A program made the translations under genes and the position numbers. 32,000 nt of DNA from an uncultured Erysipelotrichaceae bacterium. GTDB taxonomy: Bacteria > Bacillota_I > Bacilli_A > Erysipelotrichales > Erysipelotrichaceae. The stretch covers positions 205,441-237,440 of the forward strand of contig CAYNZZ010000001.1 in NCBI GenBank assembly GCA_964401865.1, written 5' to 3'. Shown piece by piece: positions 8,338 to 24,678 of this stretch; position 1 is the stretch's first letter, and each line of letters begins with the position of its first letter. The notes beneath the pieces were generated by a model. It made no database searches. It was not told the DNA's origin and saw only the letters and a list, made by a program, of their open reading frames with translations.

Positions 8338-9114
8338 CTACTTTAAAATATAACCGAAAACAGTATCTAATCCATTATCATCAAATTCAAATTCAATGAT
8401 ATAGGCGTCGTCAGATTCTAGTGTCCAAACTTTGATAGTATGATTGTTTTCTGCATTATCGACGAATGTTTTTTCTATTAAAGCACAATTTGAACCATCG
8501 ACAGCCGACATTCTTACAATGCTTGGATAAGCGTTTGGAATAGGATTGAAATCATTTTCTGAACTTAGTGCTTTATATAACAATGTATCTTTATAAGCGA
8601 TTCCGATTTTCTTTCCTAAAATATACCCACCATCATAATAGTATGTTTTAACATCTTCATCTTTAAGTAGTCCATCTATATCAAATAGGTTAAGGATAAA
8701 CCGATAATCTTTATAATATAAAGTATCAACCAATTGATTACAATCACACCATAGTCCGGCATAACCGTATTGACCCATGTTTAGATCAGTACATACTGCA
8801 CACATATTGCGATTGACAGGATAGAATTCTTTGTTTTGAAGTTCTTTAAAAGCTGTTAGTTCTAAGTATTCATAATTTCTATCATATAAAATTTCAGGCA
8901 TATCCTGCCATTTTTGATCAAGCTTAATAAAACTGTTATTATCATAACCACAATAAGCATTATCGATATTTTTGTAGCCTTCACAACCTTCAGGAATCTT
9001 TTCTACTTGAGGTTCCTCTGTTTTAATTGGTTCTACATCTTCGGTCTTTACTGGATTAGTATTTGAACAAGCTGATAGTAAGAATAATACTAATATTATT
9101 ATCAATCTTTTCAT
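8338..9114 (-). CDS. Cys-rich lipoprotein of unknown function
   Basis: 258 aa with a signal peptide and lipobox (FLLSAC-SN). The mature part carries several Cys, including CAVC and CDC. I recognise no domain. Confidence 0.7.
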   Translation of the reverse strand: MKRLIIILVLFLLSACSNTNPVKTEDVEPIKTEEPQVEKIPEGCEGYKNIDNAYCGYDNNSFIKLDQKWQDMPEILYDRNYEYLELTAFKELQNKEFYPVNRNMCAVCTDLNMGQYGYAGLWCDCNQLVDTLYYKDYRFILNLFDIDGLLKDEDVKTYYYDGGYILGKKIGIAYKDTLLYKALSSENDFNPIPNAYPSIVRMSAVDGSNCALIEKTFVDNAENNHTIKVWTLESDDAYIIEFEFDDNGLDTVFGYILK

Positions 9115-9196
9115 AATGTCATAACTTCTCCTTTTGAGTATATTTATTATACAATAAAAATAGAAGCAACAACTTTAACATGAAAGGAAAAACAGA

Positions 9197-9340
9197 ATGA
9201 AAAAAATACTTTTATTATTGATATCTAGTTTGCTTGTTATTACACTTACTTCTTGTGGCAATAAAACTAATGATTCAGGTGCAAATATAACTCCGAGCAA
9301 TAAACCGGTTCAAACTCATCATCCTGATCCTCATCATTAA
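9197..9340 (+). CDS. Small (47-aa) lipoprotein with His-rich C-terminus
   Basis: Not in the ORF track (<60 aa). The sequence is MKKILLLLISSLLVITLTSC-GNKTNDSGANITPSNKPVQTHHPDPHH, with a lipobox LTSC. SD AAAGGAAA lies upstream and a terminator follows. Confidence 0.5.
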   Translation: MKKILLLLISSLLVITLTSCGNKTNDSGANITPSNKPVQTHHPDPHH

Positions 9341-9370
9341 AACTTTAAAATATAAGATAAGTATCGAATA

Positions 9371-9405
9371 AAAACAGGCGAATTAAAACTCGTCTGTTTT
9401 TATTT
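9371..9405 (+). terminator. Intrinsic terminator after the small lipoprotein gene
   Basis: ACAGGCGA (9374-9381) / TCGTCTGT (9390-9397) form an 8-bp stem with one G-U pair. An A-run precedes it and TTTTTATTTT follows. Confidence 0.6.
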
Positions 9406-9485
9406 TGTCAACAGTCTGGAAAGGAACGAAGATTTCTTCTTTTTTTATAATTGCGTTATAATTTATATGTATATTTGGAGGTTTT

Positions 9486-10655
9486 GTGAAAAGATATAAT
9501 TTTAAAAAGGTACTTTTAAAAGATGATATTTTAGACAATGGATACATTGTTACAGACAATGGAAAAATTATAGAAATCGGCATAAATAAAGATAATAATT
9601 TTGATGGTGATATGGCGATAGCCGGGATTTTTGATATCCATAGTCATGGTTCGCATGGCTTTTCAGCTACAACGACTTCAAAAGAAGATATACTTTCCTA
9701 CACCAAAGCAATTGCCTCGACTGGTGTTACATCAGTTTTGGCTACTACACAGGAATTAGACAGCCTTTCTTTGATTGCTGACATAATTGATAAAGATGAA
9801 AGACAAGGCGCTAGAATCATTGGCATTAACGCTGAAGGCCCATTTCGCAATGAAAAATACATGGGTGCGTCAAAGGGCTTTTTGTGGCCTAAACCTAGCA
9901 TTGAATATAGTAAAAGAATGTTAGAAAGTGCTAGAGGTCATTTGCTGTATATGTCAGTTTCCTCGGAATTAGAAAAAATGGATGAGATAATTCCATACCT
10001 GGTTAAAAATGGCGTTAAAGTAGCTGGTGGACATACTGATGCGACATTTAAAGAGATGAATGAAGGTATTAAATTAGGGGTCAGTTCCATTTCGCATTTT
10101 GGTAATGCTATGCGGAAGATTCATCAAAGAGAAGGCGGAGCGATTGTGGCTTGTCTATTAGATGATGATATTTATTTGGAAATAAATCCCGATCATGTAC
10201 ATCTATCTAAGGAGATAATGGACTTATTTTTTAAAGTAAGAGGCATGGGTAAATATATTTTAATCTCTGATTCTTCCGAAGTTGCCGGTATGCCAAAGGG
10301 TACATATTTTGCCAGAGGGAAAAAACGTTTTGTGAACGAAGAAGGTGATGTCACAACCGATGACGGAACGATATCGGGAAGTGGGCATCCAATCATATAT
10401 GGCATTAGAAAACTGATTTTAGAAGATAATTATAATCCGGTTGATGTAGTGAATATGGCAACTTTAAATCCATGCAAATACATGGGTATTGATGATAAAA
10501 AAGGTAGTATCGAAGTAGGAAAAGATGCTGATATTGTTATTTTGGGTAACAATTATCAAGTGAAAAAGACAATCGTTGAAGGAGAAATAGTTTTTGATAT
10601 TGATGATAATGAGATATTGTTTAATCAAGCGATGAAGAATTTATGTACAGATTGA
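9486..10655 (+). CDS. nagA: N-acetylglucosamine-6-phosphate deacetylase family amidohydrolase (NagA-like)
   Basis: 389 aa. It has the metal-binding motif DIHSHG, NAEGPF (compare HLEGPF), GHTDAT, HFGNAM (compare HLFNAM), and a C-terminal GSIEVGKDADIVIL beta-sandwich. The start is GTG, preceded by GGAGG. Confidence 0.78.
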   Translation: MKRYNFKKVLLKDDILDNGYIVTDNGKIIEIGINKDNNFDGDMAIAGIFDIHSHGSHGFSATTTSKEDILSYTKAIASTGVTSVLATTQELDSLSLIADIIDKDERQGARIIGINAEGPFRNEKYMGASKGFLWPKPSIEYSKRMLESARGHLLYMSVSSELEKMDEIIPYLVKNGVKVAGGHTDATFKEMNEGIKLGVSSISHFGNAMRKIHQREGGAIVACLLDDDIYLEINPDHVHLSKEIMDLFFKVRGMGKYILISDSSEVAGMPKGTYFARGKKRFVNEEGDVTTDDGTISGSGHPIIYGIRKLILEDNYNPVDVVNMATLNPCKYMGIDDKKGSIEVGKDADIVILGNNYQVKKTIVEGEIVFDIDDNEILFNQAMKNLCTD

Positions 10656-19433: not shown

Positions 19434-19473
19434 AAATCTATCGAGTATAAGAGCATACTTGGTAGATTTTTTT
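19434..19473 (+). terminator. Strong intrinsic terminator of the folD-DUF951 operon
   Basis: AAATCTATCGAGTAT (19434-19448) / ATACTTGGTAGATTT (19455-19469) form a 15-bp stem with two G-U pairs and a 6-nt loop, then a T-run. It abuts the stop codon of the convergent recombinase gene. Confidence 0.8.
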
Positions 19474-20068
19474 ATTTGCCATGTGCCCATCTTAAAAAAG
19501 TATCTTGAGAAATATTTAAGCATTTTGCTGCTTCTCTTGAACTGATTGTTTTATTTTCCCATTCTTTTTTAAGATCATAGAAATTATTTGGAATTTCCTT
19601 TCGCGGTCTACCAAATTTAACTCCTCTAAGTTTGGCAGCCACGATACCTTCTTTTTGTCTTTGAAGAATATTTTCACGCTCTGTTTCAGCAACATAAGAC
19701 AATATTTGTAATACCAAGTCGGCAACAAAGATACCTGTTAAATCACCATTTGATTTATTAGTATCTAAAAGAGGCATGTCTAAAACAACCATGCGCACTC
19801 CTTTTTCCTTGGCAATAATGCGCCATTGTTGGAGTATTTCTTCGTAATTACGACCTAATCGATCGATAGATTTAATTACTAAAGTGTCGCCTTGGCGGAT
19901 TTTTCTAAGCATTTTTTGGTATTGGGGACGATTAAAGTCTTTCCCACTGAGTTTATCAATATAGATATTATTTTTTAAAACTGGATATTCATTTAAAGCG
20001 ATTAGTTGTCTATCTTCATTTTGTTCTTTAGTAGATACTCTGGCATATCCATATACTTTAGAATTCAT
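19472..20068 (-). CDS. Small serine recombinase (resolvase/invertase family)
   Basis: The N-terminal catalytic motif is VYGYARVSTKEQNEDRQ, with DRLGRN further in, the E-helix (VAETERENILQRQKEGI), GRP and a C-terminal HTH. The track start at TTG 20092 is unlikely. ATG 20068 lies 6 nt after GAGGAG and gives 198 aa. Confidence 0.9.
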   Translation of the reverse strand: MNSKVYGYARVSTKEQNEDRQLIALNEYPVLKNNIYIDKLSGKDFNRPQYQKMLRKIRQGDTLVIKSIDRLGRNYEEILQQWRIIAKEKGVRMVVLDMPLLDTNKSNGDLTGIFVADLVLQILSYVAETERENILQRQKEGIVAAKLRGVKFGRPRKEIPNNFYDLKKEWENKTISSREAAKCLNISQDTFLRWAHGK

Positions 20069-20232
20069 ATTTAACTCCTCTATTGCAGTCAAAAAATCAT
20101 AGTTTTATTAAAACCGTGATTTAACAAATTGATTTATTATCTATTGTTTGAGTAAATGATATTTTAGTTCATCTTAAAGTTAAAAAATAATTACATAAAC
20201 TAATCGAATCATTACATATTCCGACTGATAAT

Positions 20233-20268
20233 GTAGAATTTATCGTTCTATAGTAGAATTTATCGTTC
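20233..20268. repeat. Two copies of a 16-bp direct repeat, GTAGAATTTATCGTTC, with a 20-bp period
   Basis: The copies at 20233-20248 and 20253-20268 are identical. They lie immediately upstream of a TATAAT at 20277-20282 in the recombinase-adhesin intergenic region. Confidence 0.9.
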
Positions 20269-20280
20269 GGAAGGGATATA

Positions 20281-20482
20281 ATAATTTGTACACAAGGGTG
20301 ATGGGTTTTTGAGCAGTTTTTGTACAAAAAGAAGAAGAAAATTCATACTTGTGCAATGCAATAATGTTGCACGAAATGTTCTGATTTTTAAAGCGATGAT
20401 AAAGAATGATATCGACAAGGGGGAGGCAGCAGTATGACTTATAAAGGTAACCACAAGTTTATGTACAAATTGTTTTGTACAT
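20281..20482. promoter_or_regulatory. Cluster of four TGTACA-core dyads (consensus about TTTGTACAAA), a candidate recombinase or regulator binding/crossover site set
   Basis: TGTACA occurs at 20287-20292, 20321-20326, 20462-20467 and 20476-20481. TTTTTGTACAAAAA (20317-20330) is a perfect palindrome. ATGTACAAA-ttgt-TTTGTACAT (20461-20482) is a perfect 9-bp-arm dyad inside the adhesin signal-peptide codons. Confidence 0.5.
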
Positions 20483-23400
20483 TTCTTTGCGTTTGTTTAC
20501 TAGGGACAAATGTAACTGGAGCTTTAGCTGAATCAACAGTGAAACCTGTAGTTTATTCTGAAGACGGAATTGTAGATGATTCGCCGTCAATAGATGAACA
20601 AAACACAGAAGATAATACATTTGAAATTGCCAATGAGCAGGAAGAAACTAAGAATACAGAAAATGTTACTGATGATGAAACGGAAATTGAAAACAATCCT
20701 CTTTACATTGTTTCGTATGAATTGTTAGATACGCAAGAATTTTTGGTTGATTATGATGGAGAATTATATTTAAGTTTGCCAGGTGCAGACAAACAAGACT
20801 TAAGTGAAGAATTGATAATCGAAATGCTTCCTAAAGAAGTGAAAGCTACTCTATCAAATGATGAAGAAAAAGTTCTTTCTATAACTTGGGATCTTTCTGA
20901 TTTTTTTGGTGATAATGTCGAAATGGCAAGTGATAAAACTTATCGTTTTGTTGCTTCAATCGATAGCGAATATGCTTATAAAGAAAACTTAGAACAACCA
21001 TATGTTTTATTTACTTTTGGTGGCGCAGAAACATATGATGATAATGGTTATACTGGCACTCGTATACCAATAACTGGTAATAAAGATGAAGTGCTTAAAC
21101 AACATCAGGTAAAGGGTATGACGCCAAAAGGTTCGGTTATAGATTTATTTGATTATAGTTTTAGTGAGACATTAACAGACGACGATCTTTTACCAAATGG
21201 TGCTAAATTTGAAAATTACAGTACCTTAATAAATGAAGGTGCATTGTTGCTATTTGGTGGTTCAGCTATGCGTGAAGCAGGTTTTTGGAACTTAGGTTCA
21301 GGAGCAGCACGCCCATGGGGTAAAGCAAATTTAAATATGAACGGAATCGTTAAGCGCGTGCTTGAGAATGGCTATCCATATATTAATTTAGATGATGCAC
21401 GTAGTGAACTTCCGAACGCGACAGGAACAGAAGCTGATGATTGGGGTAAAGAAATATTTATGGATATTGCCAATTTAAATCATGCGGAATTTGAAGGTGC
21501 CGGTGTAGATGCTGCTAGAGCTTTATCAACAAAATTATTGAATAGTCGTGGTTTGACCGTTGGAGCAGATGGAAAAGTTAGTGGAACATGCAAAAAAGCA
21601 TCACTACAATATTTGTTTGATGCCGATGTAGAAACTGATGGTAAAGAGTCATATAAAAATGTAACAGGTTTATTCCAAATGGATGAAAATGGTTACTACT
21701 ATTATGACGCTCGTAAAAACTTTGCTGAATTTAATCAATCTACCTCTGCAACAAGTGATGGTTCGTTTACCTTATATGACGGACCTGCAGTATGGCGTAC
21801 TGATAGCGGATATAATCCAAACACAAATACATTTGACGGCGATAAGAGTTTAGGAAATTTCTTCCCATTTGATAAAGCGTCAAAAGTTTTTGATTCCATT
21901 CAAACTGCGGATAAAAACGGAAATCCTACTAACATTCTTTCTAGTTCTGATAAAATTACAAATTTATCTAATGAAGTACGAGCTAATCACTATTTCGGAA
22001 TGAAAATGACTCTGAATTTTACTCAACCAGAAAATGGTAAGTTGAATATGGGTTCATCTGGAAAACAAGATATGATATTTGAATTCTCTGGAGATGATGA
22101 TGTTTGGATTTTCGTTGATGATGTGCTAGTTATTGATTTGGGCGGAATACATAGTGAGCTATATGGCACTATTAACTTTAGTACCGGCGAAGTTATTACT
22201 GGACAAAGCTGGCGAACTAATGGTTTACCAAATGACCCAGGAAATATGGAAGGCGATCGCAAGACAACTCTTTATGAACTATTCGTTGATGCTTTAGGTC
22301 AAGAGGGAGCTGATGCTATTCGTTGGACAAATAATGGTGCTGGTCAAAAAGTATTTTCAACTGGTACTATGCATAACATAAAATTATTCTATTTAGAGCG
22401 TGGCAATTACGATTCAAGCTTATCAATGCGTTTTAATCTTCAACCACAACTATATCACAGCATTAAGAAAGCCGATCAAAACGGCAATCCACTCGAGAAT
22501 GTTGAATTTGAGCTATATGCTGCTGAAGCGAAAAATGGTAATAGTACCGATATTGCTGACTATGAAATAATTGGCGAAAAAATTGGTACATTGATTACAG
22601 GCAAAGATGGTACTTCATCATTTGTTAGAACCGATGGTTCACCTTTTAGCTTTATTGATCGTTATCATCAGACTGGAGTATTGCATTACATCCTAAAAGA
22701 AACTAAGACCGCTGCTGGTTATCGCAGTTTACCAAAAGATATTGTATTAAGATTTGATCCTAATAATTCTATGCTTGTTGTTGCTAATCGTTATCAAACT
22801 GGTGCTTATGCAAGTTTCTTTTCTAACATACGTGAAACAGGAGAAGTAACTTATGGTCAATTTGATACTGGTACAGGTGCGATTGTTCCAAGTGATAGTG
22901 TTTTACAAGCAAATAATAAGAAGAATGGTTTAATTATTGCGGTTCCGATGCTTTTGCAAGGTAGTATGTCAAATGGTAAATGGGTAGCGCTTTATGGAAG
23001 CAATGCTGATGGTTATGGGGCAATTGTGCCAAGTGAACGTAGTGCAGAAGCATGGCGTAAAGCAATACTTAAAGCAGCGTTATATCAAGCTAGTGATGAA
23101 CGTTGGCCAGAATGGTATATTACATATAATGATAATGATGAAAAACTAGAAGGTTTATTACAAGATTTGCCAGGTCGTTCTGATAGATATCTGCTTACTA
23201 ATAAAAATGGCGATATGAAAATGGTATATGGTATTATCGAAAAAAGTGCATTGAATAAATTAGGAATCACTGGTAATAATTCTGCCGAATTGTATGACGC
23301 TCTTGAAAAATATGTATCTGATGCAGTTGCAAACGGTATAAATAATGGGCAAGATATTGATAAAGTAATCGATGAAATTATTAAAAAACTTGATATAAGT

Positions 23401-24678
23401 TCGGCCAATTTTGATAATCGTGATTTTTCGTTCCTTAATACCGATCAGTTCCAAAGAGAATTTCGTTCGATAATTCATATTCCAAATGAGCGTCGCGAGC
23501 TTCGTGTTTTGAAGGTTGATGAAGACGGCAAGGGAATTAATGGTGTTGAATTTACATTAGTTGCACCTGATGGAACAGAAATCAAAGGCACTACTGCCAA
23601 TATTGACGGGCAAGATGGTATGCTTATTTTTAGACCTGATGTAAATACTGCAAATGGATATGCTGAAGTTAAGTGGGCAGATGTTAATTCAAAATATGTC
23701 TTAAAAGAAACAAATGTTCCACAAGGATATGAGAAAAATGAGACAAAAATACCGGTAATTGTAGGCATTTACTCAATCTATGCCGATGCCGGAAGTAAAG
23801 AAGACGGAGTAACTGTCATGGCAGGTGTCGGTAAGTTGGCACAAACAATGGTTAAGTACGCAGCTGACGACATTGTGAATATCACTTTAAGAGATATTAC
23901 TGCGATAGCCCAAGTACAAAAAACAGGTAATTTTAATTTAGATGGCTGGCAAGATGAAAAACTTGCAGGAACTAATATTTCAAGAAGTATGAATTTGCAT
24001 TATGGTATAAATGCGGTGGTTGATTATGGATTGCATGATGAAGATGGTGGTCAAAATATGTATCCGTTCTTTACGACTGATGAAGGCTTTTTGAGAACTC
24101 GCATTATTCAAAATACTTATGCATTACAAAATGCTCAGTATCATAATAGCAACAATAAAGCTAATTGGGATAATTTGGATGGTATGGATTTAACTAATTT
24201 GTTCAGTTTGCAGAATACTGTTGTTGTAACTAATAAAAAAGCGGTTTCAGAAGATAACGGAAGTTTGAAAATCAGTAAGTTGGTATCCGGTTCTAATTTA
24301 AAAGATAGCGATTATGCTAAGAATTTTAGCTTCACAGTTGAGTTAAAGAATAGTGATGGCAGTCCGCTTGACGGAGAATACTATTACTATGGCGAACAAC
24401 GTGCCGGTTATATCAGTGATGGTGAAACTCTTTCTTTAGGACACGATGAAGCATTGACTATTCTTGGTTTACCAAATGGCACAAAATGGGCAATTAGAGA
24501 AAAAGCCGAAAACGGTTGGTCGCTGTTGTCGGGTAATGAAATTTCTGGAACGATAGAAACAAATAAAATTTCTTTAGCCGCTTTCGTCAACTATAAAGGT
24601 ATCAAAGAAGATAAACATGATAATAAACATAATCCGGTAATTGTTCCAAATACTGGAGTTAAAAAACAAACAAAGTAA
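20434..24678 (+). CDS. Large secreted surface/adhesin-like protein with a fibro-slime (PA14-like) domain and SpaA/CnaB-type prealbumin-fold domains
   Basis: 1414 aa. SD GGGGGAGG lies 7 nt before the ATG. The signal peptide is MTYKGNHKFMYKLFCTFLCVCLLGTNVTGALA-E, followed by an acidic linker. Fibro-slime signature: FFPFD ... FEFSGDDDVWIFVDDVLVIDLGGIH ... GNYDSSL (about nt 21850-22440). CnaB-like repeats: NVEFELY...LKETKTAAGY and GVEFTLV...LKETNVPQGY. The C-terminal domain ends in VPNTG. Confidence 0.9.
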   Translation: MTYKGNHKFMYKLFCTFLCVCLLGTNVTGALAESTVKPVVYSEDGIVDDSPSIDEQNTEDNTFEIANEQEETKNTENVTDDETEIENNPLYIVSYELLDTQEFLVDYDGELYLSLPGADKQDLSEELIIEMLPKEVKATLSNDEEKVLSITWDLSDFFGDNVEMASDKTYRFVASIDSEYAYKENLEQPYVLFTFGGAETYDDNGYTGTRIPITGNKDEVLKQHQVKGMTPKGSVIDLFDYSFSETLTDDDLLPNGAKFENYSTLINEGALLLFGGSAMREAGFWNLGSGAARPWGKANLNMNGIVKRVLENGYPYINLDDARSELPNATGTEADDWGKEIFMDIANLNHAEFEGAGVDAARALSTKLLNSRGLTVGADGKVSGTCKKASLQYLFDADVETDGKESYKNVTGLFQMDENGYYYYDARKNFAEFNQSTSATSDGSFTLYDGPAVWRTDSGYNPNTNTFDGDKSLGNFFPFDKASKVFDSIQTADKNGNPTNILSSSDKITNLSNEVRANHYFGMKMTLNFTQPENGKLNMGSSGKQDMIFEFSGDDDVWIFVDDVLVIDLGGIHSELYGTINFSTGEVITGQSWRTNGLPNDPGNMEGDRKTTLYELFVDALGQEGADAIRWTNNGAGQKVFSTGTMHNIKLFYLERGNYDSSLSMRFNLQPQLYHSIKKADQNGNPLENVEFELYAAEAKNGNSTDIADYEIIGEKIGTLITGKDGTSSFVRTDGSPFSFIDRYHQTGVLHYILKETKTAAGYRSLPKDIVLRFDPNNSMLVVANRYQTGAYASFFSNIRETGEVTYGQFDTGTGAIVPSDSVLQANNKKNGLIIAVPMLLQGSMSNGKWVALYGSNADGYGAIVPSERSAEAWRKAILKAALYQASDERWPEWYITYNDNDEKLEGLLQDLPGRSDRYLLTNKNGDMKMVYGIIEKSALNKLGITGNNSAELYDALEKYVSDAVANGINNGQDIDKVIDEIIKKLDISSANFDNRDFSFLNTDQFQREFRSIIHIPNERRELRVLKVDEDGKGINGVEFTLVAPDGTEIKGTTANIDGQDGMLIFRPDVNTANGYAEVKWADVNSKYVLKETNVPQGYEKNETKIPVIVGIYSIYADAGSKEDGVTVMAGVGKLAQTMVKYAADDIVNITLRDITAIAQVQKTGNFNLDGWQDEKLAGTNISRSMNLHYGINAVVDYGLHDEDGGQNMYPFFTTDEGFLRTRIIQNTYALQNAQYHNSNNKANWDNLDGMDLTNLFSLQNTVVVTNKKAVSEDNGSLKISKLVSGSNLKDSDYAKNFSFTVELKNSDGSPLDGEYYYYGEQRAGYISDGETLSLGHDEALTILGLPNGTKWAIREKAENGWSLLSGNEISGTIETNKISLAAFVNYKGIKEDKHDNKHNPVIVPNTGVKKQTK

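Follow-up and report, generated by a model that had tools for sequence, protein, structure and literature searches.

A probable invertible promoter beside a small serine recombinase gene, in front of a giant adhesin-like gene of an uncultured Erysipelotrichaceae bacterium

Introduction

Invertible promoters are a main route of surface variation in gut bacteria, and the best-characterised cases come from Bacteroides (Mpi and tyrosine invertases), enterobacteria (Hin and FimB/E) and Clostridioides difficile (RecV). Hin, Gin, Cin and Pin are serine recombinases of about 190-200 amino acids that act on inverted 26-bp dyad sites, each with a 2-bp core between two 12-bp halves; in serine recombinases a staggered cut at this central dinucleotide sets the polarity of the site. 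Hin of Salmonella switches a surface protein by flipping a promoter-bearing segment of about 1 kb. Here we describe a stretch of 32,000 nucleotides (hereafter the window; positions 205,441 to 237,440 of contig CAYNZZ010000001.1, assembly GCA_964401865.1) from an uncultured Erysipelotrichaceae bacterium, in which the gene of a small serine recombinase and that of a giant secreted adhesin-like protein are separated by a 365-bp intergenic region. We consider it likely, though short of certain, that this region is a promoter inversion switch run by the adjacent recombinase.

The proposed module resembles the Hin/hix system in its small serine recombinase, its inverted 26-bp sites and the predicted promoter inversion before a surface-protein gene, but its segment measures only 124 bp and does not contain the recombinase gene, and its -35 element straddles the crossover core. 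To our knowledge, neither Fis nor a recombinational enhancer is to be expected in Firmicutes. As with Mpi and the capsule promoters of Bacteroides fragilis, a serine recombinase would flip a short promoter cassette before a surface locus of a gut commensal. Mpi, however, acts globally on many loci, whereas a convincing site motif was found in the 32-kb window only beside the recombinase gene, and the inverted-repeat sequence of the window sites differs as well. The R64 shufflon and Min of p15B also have more than two crossover sites and several interconvertible arrangements; coding segments are shuffled there, whereas the extra site of the window would only decide which 20-bp unit flanks the promoter, so that two sequence-distinct ON forms would exist. 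Invertible promoters or leaders of surface proteins are likewise found in C. difficile and among the PhaseFinder gut invertons (PMC2784873, PMC5903667, PMC11892184). The cwpV and flagellar switches of C. difficile are invertible elements that depend on the tyrosine recombinase RecV (PMC2784873, PMC5903667), and a recent survey connects its main, Clostridia-dominated inverton group, 139, with a tyrosine recombinase (PMC11892184), whereas the window module would use a serine recombinase. In the literature covered, which is incomplete, we found no published description of the module or of its site motif, and the motif strings do not occur in the accessible part of the PMC11892184 supplements; this conserved Clostridial module thus appears undescribed so far.

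Results

Recombination sites and promoter cassette

The intergenic region contains a perfect tandem repeat, GTAGAATTTATCGTTC-TATA-GTAGAATTTATCGTTC, at 20233-20268 and, at 20369-20382, its degenerate inverted partner GCACGAAATGTTCT. Both elements, which are the true recombination sites, were missed by the first-pass annotation, an earlier reading of the window sequence. A site consists of two 12-bp half-sites (consensus GAACGAWAANKT) around a 2-bp core, 26 bp in all (Table 1). Site a1 matches the family half-site GAACGAWAANNT plus CT on the minus strand with zero mismatches and has the dyad architecture seen beside homologous recombinases. Site a2 is a tandem copy of a1, placed 20 bp away with a 6-bp overlap, while site R matches half-site plus core on the plus strand with two mismatches. 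Because the cores read AG on the left and CT on the right, the left and right sites are inverted relative to each other. Dyad sites of about 26 bp with a 2-bp core and inverted orientation (a1 and a2 against R) correspond to the Hin-type geometry, and the non-palindromic AG/CT core fits the standard serine-recombinase mechanism, since the central staggered cut fixes polarity.

The predicted promoter reads toward the adhesin gene, and its -35-like hexamer TAGAAT straddles the core of a2. The Shine-Dalgarno sequence and the ATG fall outside the invertible segment, which carries only this promoter, itself a sequence prediction. Two further candidate sites were discarded: the terminator hairpin at 19434-19469, whose half-site-like arms show the wrong polarity, does not qualify as a fourth site, and a lone half-site with one mismatch at 9424 is probably a chance match.

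Table 1. Features of the recombinase-adhesin locus, in window coordinates
Feature	Position	Strand	Basis or description
Small serine recombinase gene, 198 aa (amino acids)	19472..20068	-	PF00239 profile match and translation
Spacer, recombinase start codon to site a1	20069..20222	.	only single-nucleotide variation across 20 strains
Site a1	20223..20248	+	outer half GACTGATAATGT 20223-34, core AG 20235-36, inner half AATTTATCGTTC 20237-48
Site a2	20243..20268	+	TCGTTCTATAGT-AG-AATTTATCGTTC; core AG 20255-56, inner half 20257-68
Predicted promoter, ON orientation	20254..20282	+	-35-like TAGAAT 20254-59, 17-nt spacer, -10 TATAAT 20277-82
Invertible segment	20257..20380 (a2 x R, 124 bp) or 20237-20380 (a1 x R, 144 bp)	.	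in silico inversion
TTGTACA palindrome cluster	20286..20481 (20286, 20320/20321, 20462, 20475)	.	source of the inverted repeats of the first-pass annotation
Site R	20369..20394	+	inner half GCACGAAATGTT 20369-80, core CT 20381-82, outer half GATTTTTAAAGC 20383-94
Fixed 5' leader outside the switch, with Shine-Dalgarno GGGGGAGG 20419-26	20383..20433	+	read from sequence; same orientation in all strains
Target gene, 1414-aa secreted adhesin-like protein	20434..24678	+	signal peptide; SpaA, DUF7601 and fibro-slime domains

On this basis, we propose that the recombinase would bind the 26-bp dyad sites, a1 and a2 with their AG cores on the left and R with its CT core on the right, and that cleavage and exchange at the core would flip the 124-bp (a2 x R) or the 144-bp (a1 x R) segment. 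In the ON state, represented by the window, the promoter would be aimed at the 1414-aa gene and its transcript would run through R and the fixed leader with the Shine-Dalgarno sequence; in the OFF state, the inverted promoter would be aimed back at the recombinase gene. The predicted inverted junctions are TATAGTAGAACATTTCGTGC and CCCTTCCGAACGATAAATTCT or, written as OFF-state breakpoints marked by a slash, TATAGTAGAA/CATTTCGTGC and CCCTTCC/GAACGATAAATTCT. With three sites, a 20-bp unit would change sides relative to the cassette through successive inversions, and passage of a lineage through OFF could be read from this relocation.

Strain variation within the species

We compared contigs carrying this recombinase, or variants 99% identical to it, from 20 samples; samples with the window species include SRR14167410, SRR14167411, SRR14167422, SRR29185108, SRR29185109, DRR815528 and DRR815530. 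Alleles were described by the number of 20-bp site units to the left and to the right of the promoter segment. The window type (2,0) was present in about nine contigs, (1,1) in seven, (1,0) in two and (1,2) in one, and the sequence between the repeats had a single orientation in every allele. In (1,1), the lost left unit is found as an exact reverse complement right after 20380, at the core of R. We then simulated the proposed path. Inversion of 20257-20380 followed by inversion of 20237-20380 converted the window into a (1,1) allele with only 1-2 differences from three contigs of this type (L001, L003 and L005), compared to 20-22 differing positions for the unmodified window, and the reverse order (a1 x R first) gave an identical product. 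A marker polymorphism behaved in the same way: CGTTT stands in a1 of a (2,0) contig (L113) and the complementary AAACG in the right-most unit of L001 and L005, which is the placement predicted by the inversion path; the run accessions of these three contigs are adjacent.

Over 1,204 bp, 0 differences separate the (2,0) contigs (the window, L002, L004, L110 and L125) from the (1,1) contigs (L001, L003 and L005), and the two alleles are found side by side again in two further lineages (L006 versus L009 and L013; L149 versus L007). It follows that the change recurs and outpaces point mutation.

An alternative explanation would dispense with inversion: the 20-bp units would be a variable-number tandem repeat changed by replication slippage only, and the recombinase would be unrelated to it, for instance a domesticated or relic resolvase. 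Such a view accommodates the (1,0) and (1,2) alleles, which change copy number without conserving the total and whose existence indicates that slippage also contributes to copy-number variation. It is also compatible with a contig end (L015) that fits three or more left copies, and with the lack of any OFF contig among those of the window species. However, slippage cannot produce an inverted copy on the opposite side from a single copy. Nor can it produce the TATA spacer between the tandem units, which is also present in the inverted right-hand copy and cannot be derived by tandem duplication of a single-copy allele. In addition, the marker polymorphism travels with the unit, and loss on the left is coupled to gain on the right in 13 of the 16 complete alleles, including those on flanks free of single-nucleotide differences. 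Taken with the comparison of related loci given below, these data make slippage as the sole process highly unlikely in our view, and the reciprocal relocation of the unit is better explained by promoter inversion.

Two smaller polymorphisms were noted beside the switch. On comparison of the window with L003, L016 and L110, a G-tract inside the cassette (20296-20298, about 14 nt past the -10 box) differs in length (GGG or GGGGG), and the Shine-Dalgarno region carries a G/T polymorphism (CAAGGGGGAGG or CAATGGGGAGG); both vary among otherwise near-identical strains.

The same module beside homologous recombinases

The family set comprised 16 loci, namely the window and 15 GTDB representative loci with recombinases 69-77% identical. 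In about 15 relatives the module directly follows the recombinase stop codon, in the order AG-core site, some 100-120 bp, CT-core site (for example GAACGATAAAGT-CT-AATTTATCGTTC for the CT-core site of L032). Half-site matches reached 1.1 per kb within 450 bp of the recombinase gene versus 0.23 per kb elsewhere, an enrichment of about 5-fold. When no core was imposed, the dinucleotide after the half-site was CT or AG in 35 of 39 cases, and paired sites had opposite polarity. The promoter geometry is equally fixed: in 16/16 loci the distance between the AG core and a -10-type hexamer, in most cases TATAAT, is exactly 20 nt, and the -35 position is taken by a hexamer, TAGAC(T/A), that extends across the core. 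The orientation of the promoter, on the other hand, differs between loci. It points toward the downstream gene in five (L022, L030, L034, L038 and the window) and toward the recombinase in 11. Two relatives, L034 and L037, have flanks 82-83% identical and a core-to-core segment of 122 bp, and their cassettes are 49% identical as found but 93% once one is flipped at the cores. At the level of sequence, this comparison is the clearest evidence that the cassette inverts. Both the flipped cassette and the motif kept with the same polarity beside homologous recombinases also speak against slippage alone.

The downstream genes in relatives mostly encode large signal-peptide proteins, from 660 to more than 1,500 aa; another target is a pilus-type cluster in which SpaA/Cna_B proteins are accompanied by a BTAD regulator and a signal peptidase. 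A tandem second site is present in L018, L022, L033 and L036, so that three-site layouts recur. No inverted repeats were found upstream of the homologous recombinases, the module being downstream in relatives.

Several peculiarities of individual relatives were recorded. In L020 (5902-6204), L031 (5934-6215) and L033 (5846-6106), the first gene past the switch encodes a conserved protein of about 90 aa, not an adhesin, with the motifs ...YLSDL... and ...EWNDAV.YIT, and in the L024 group the large protein comes after two open reading frames, of 71 and 78 aa. An upstream element, CCTCCTTTAAAATTGTA, is conserved at many homologous recombinase genes (L103:4934-4995; L017, L020, L021, L024 and L028) and missing from the upstream region of the window. 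In L103 it pairs with a downstream sequence overlapping the recombinase Shine-Dalgarno (AAATTTAAAGGAGG), a pairing that suggests translational control of the recombinase. Beside the 80% identical recombinase of Frisingicoccus caecimuris (L099:5598-5925; L097, L098 and L146) only a degenerate downstream site remnant persists, GAGATAATGA-AG-ACATAG..., followed by a candidate minus-strand tRNA-like gene, recognised by its appearance; in some strains the next gene downstream of the recombinase is a prophage integrase. This recombinase copy may act in trans or be an orphan.

One contig, L137, a relative of L024, was considered as an inverted junction and rejected, only 37 nt matching the reverse complement of the left flank. 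In this low-coverage contig (1233-1290) an inverted copy of 31-37 nt of the left outer flank, which includes the last recombinase codons, takes the place of the 45 nt on the right of site 2 and joins normal downstream DNA at a 6-nt microhomology, ACCATG. The rearrangement has the appearance of an assembly chimera or of a template-switch (quasipalindrome) event.

Orientation in the window species

Several findings weigh against the proposed switch. The outer half of R agrees with the half-site at 6/12 positions, a poor match, and the -35 hexamer agrees with the consensus at just three of six, which is why a generic promoter scan missed the TATAAT promoter. The (1,0) and (1,2) alleles are probably accounted for by slippage. 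The recombinase gene is divergent from the switch, whereas in relatives it lies directly upstream of it and in the same direction. Finally, no OFF-orientation contig of the window species was found, all 20 samples being ON in every contig that spans the switch, while in each of two relatives 10/10 contigs were OFF; with orientation so uniform in the sampled species, polymorphism within a species was never seen directly. Minority states are invisible in these data because assemblies report the majority orientation only. A search of Joint Genome Institute (JGI) metagenome contigs for the predicted OFF junction GTAGAACATTTCGTGCAAC returned five matches, all unrelated and due to chance. Contig ends in the intergenic region (L015 at about 20262, L113 at 20325 and L148 at about 20188) were rejected as signs of mixed orientation, their positions being scattered.

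The uniform ON orientation, the degenerate R and the atypical arrangement with its recombinase gene turned round would also fit a switch that exists in the family but has become locked, or almost locked, in the ON state here, with the (2,0) and (1,1) alleles as traces of rare past events. But the recombinase open reading frame is intact and 99-100% conserved in all strains of the species, and the orientation seen in assemblies is only that of the majority. Moreover, flanks with 0 differences over 1.2 kb carry either allele, and three separate lineages contain both, so that the events must be recent and repeated. We therefore judge a locked switch to be unlikely and favour a promoter inversion switch that still operates: from its sequence, the invertible promoter before the giant adhesin-like gene is probably real and active.

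The recombinase

PF00239 (Resolvase N-terminal domain) spans residues 5-150 of the recombinase (E 3.8e-33). Ser12, the presumed catalytic serine, lies in the motif GYARVSTKEQ, which in alignments falls on the active-site region of Sin and of Tn3 resolvase. At the C-terminus, an excisionase-type helix-turn-helix match at residues 175-196 is weak and below the cutoff (E 0.002), and Pfam HTH_7 gave no match in the protein. The solved structures nearest by sequence are Sin (Tn552 bin3, 1.3e-28) and the Tn3 and gamma-delta resolvases, within a range of 1e-28 to 1e-22. Gin structures reached only E 5e-16 to 1e-15; the window enzyme is thus nearer to Sin, Tn3 and gamma-delta resolvases than to Gin, and the Hin/Gin/Cin/Pin subfamily does not hold its nearest relatives. 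Nor does the protein belong to the Mpi family, since it scores 56 bits with the Mpi model (NCBIfam NF009949), under the 272-bit cutoff. Its homologues in gut Clostridia number in the thousands.

Beta-recombinase can catalyse inversion as well as resolution. The window module is like Sin and beta-recombinase in that these are its nearest solved sequence relatives and that the tandem second site of several family loci recalls the accessory sites of res. Unlike theirs, its setting is neither a transposon nor a plasmid, and its sites lie in inverted orientation on either side of a promoter. Since the 20-bp unit relocates, the tandem site takes part in crossover and is more than accessory.

Neighbouring genes and the target

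The window has a G+C content of 33.7%. To the left of the recombinase gene lie folD, a 71-aa DUF951 gene and, after them, a terminator-like hairpin (19434-19469). No transposase, phage or plasmid genes were found within about 10 kb on either side, and the synteny of the flanking folD, DUF951, DegV, DUF1836 and ABC-transporter genes is kept in every assembly of the species. The locus therefore differs from a transposon or plasmid resolvase setting: no such genes are nearby, chromosomal synteny is kept and the partner sites are inverted. The recombinase gene is separated from site a1 by 154 bp and is divergent from the switch. This spacer presumably holds the recombinase's own promoter; a consensus scan gave a candidate on the minus strand, TTAACT-16-TATCAT (20183-20156).

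The adhesin-like protein varies from 1413 to 1421 aa among strains. Its C-terminus (window 24640-24678) reads ...IVPNTGVKKQTK, that is ...VPNTGVKKQTK. No canonical LPXTG/sortase sorting signal was found there despite the SpaA and DUF7601 domains, because the hydrophobic segment is missing after the PxTG-like motif. Elsewhere in the window, the gap from 9114 to 9486 holds a small unannotated open reading frame (9198-9342) whose product is a lipoprotein-like peptide, MKKILLLLISSLLVITLTSCGN....

Inverted repeats of the first-pass annotation and the TTGTACA cluster

The first-pass annotation had already outlined a candidate invertible switch in which a chromosomal, non-mobile serine recombinase acts before a giant surface-protein gene, with an OFF state where transcription points toward the recombinase. 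This outline agrees with our proposed mechanism. Its description of the locus was likewise reproduced: the 198-aa resolvase-family gene (Pfam Resolvase E 3.8e-33 and translation), standing alone without mobile-element neighbours, the folD-DUF951 terminator beside it, the 365-bp intergenic region and the 1414-aa secreted adhesin-like gene are all present. So are the two imperfect inverted-repeat pairs, 13/15 and 16/21 identical.

The anatomy, however, was different. Inversion had been placed between 20281-95 or 20181-201 and a right arm at 20456-76 (20459-73 for the first pair), within adhesin codons 8-15, so that the flipped segment would extend into the coding sequence and, by enclosing the Shine-Dalgarno sequence and the ATG, detach both signals from the gene. 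The real segment carries the promoter only (Table 1), and OFF would not detach them. We consider the earlier scheme hardly credible. As a group, the repeats are real and somewhat commoner than in shuffled sequence: among dinucleotide shuffles of 20069-20485, 20% contained at least one 13/15 inverted repeat and 37% a 16/21 repeat, and the observed counts (3 and 8 overlapping windows) were reached in 7% and 1%. This modest excess arises because the heptamer TTGTACA is self-complementary and clustered, with 20286-20481 holding 5 of the 8 matches in the entire 32-kb window; since the heptamer is palindromic, any two copies read as direct and as inverted repeats, and the arms are a by-product of this cluster. 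Moreover, no rearrangement was seen at the arms in the 20 same-species assemblies, all strains being collinear across them, and the arms lack the defined dyad and 2-bp core that a serine-recombinase site needs. They are also unlike the motif conserved beside homologous recombinases: where the pairing of recombinase and surface protein is conserved, the newly identified sites are kept and these arms are not.

The TTGTACA cluster itself does not belong to the recombination sites, and every strain retains it. Two copies lie inside the cassette just past the -10 box, one of them as a 14-bp palindrome (TTTTTGTACAAAAA, 20317-20330), and two lie in adhesin codons 9-16. The cluster could be an operator for a dimeric regulator.

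Discussion

We infer that the recombinase described here is the catalyst of the rearrangements and that crossover proceeds by a 2-bp staggered cut at AG/CT. The TATAAT box would be that of the adhesin promoter, and switching would continue in this species. The reversed recombinase gene may have consequences of its own: in the OFF state the promoter would read the recombinase in sense here, whereas it would read it in antisense in relatives. Speculatively, such sense transcription might bias this species toward ON.

A broader reading is possible but tentative. The family would constitute widespread, so far undescribed modules of a Sin-like serine invertase and a promoter cassette in gut Clostridia (Lachnospiraceae, Oscillospiraceae and Frisingicoccus relatives), with the -35 across the core, gating giant adhesins and pilus loci. 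In this species, a third site would make the switch a multi-state device in which the 20-bp unit records passage through OFF, and the reversed recombinase could explain why the locus is ON here and OFF in most relatives.

The module can be recognised by its signature, in which the recombinase is accompanied by 26-bp sites whose core is AG/CT and by a -10 box placed 20 nt away from that core, and it stands before very large adhesin-like proteins in many uncultured gut Clostridia. The motif enables reference-based searches and read-level phase calling where finders of short imperfect repeats would miss the sites, and the relocating 20-bp unit would provide a natural marker of the passage of a lineage through the OFF state.

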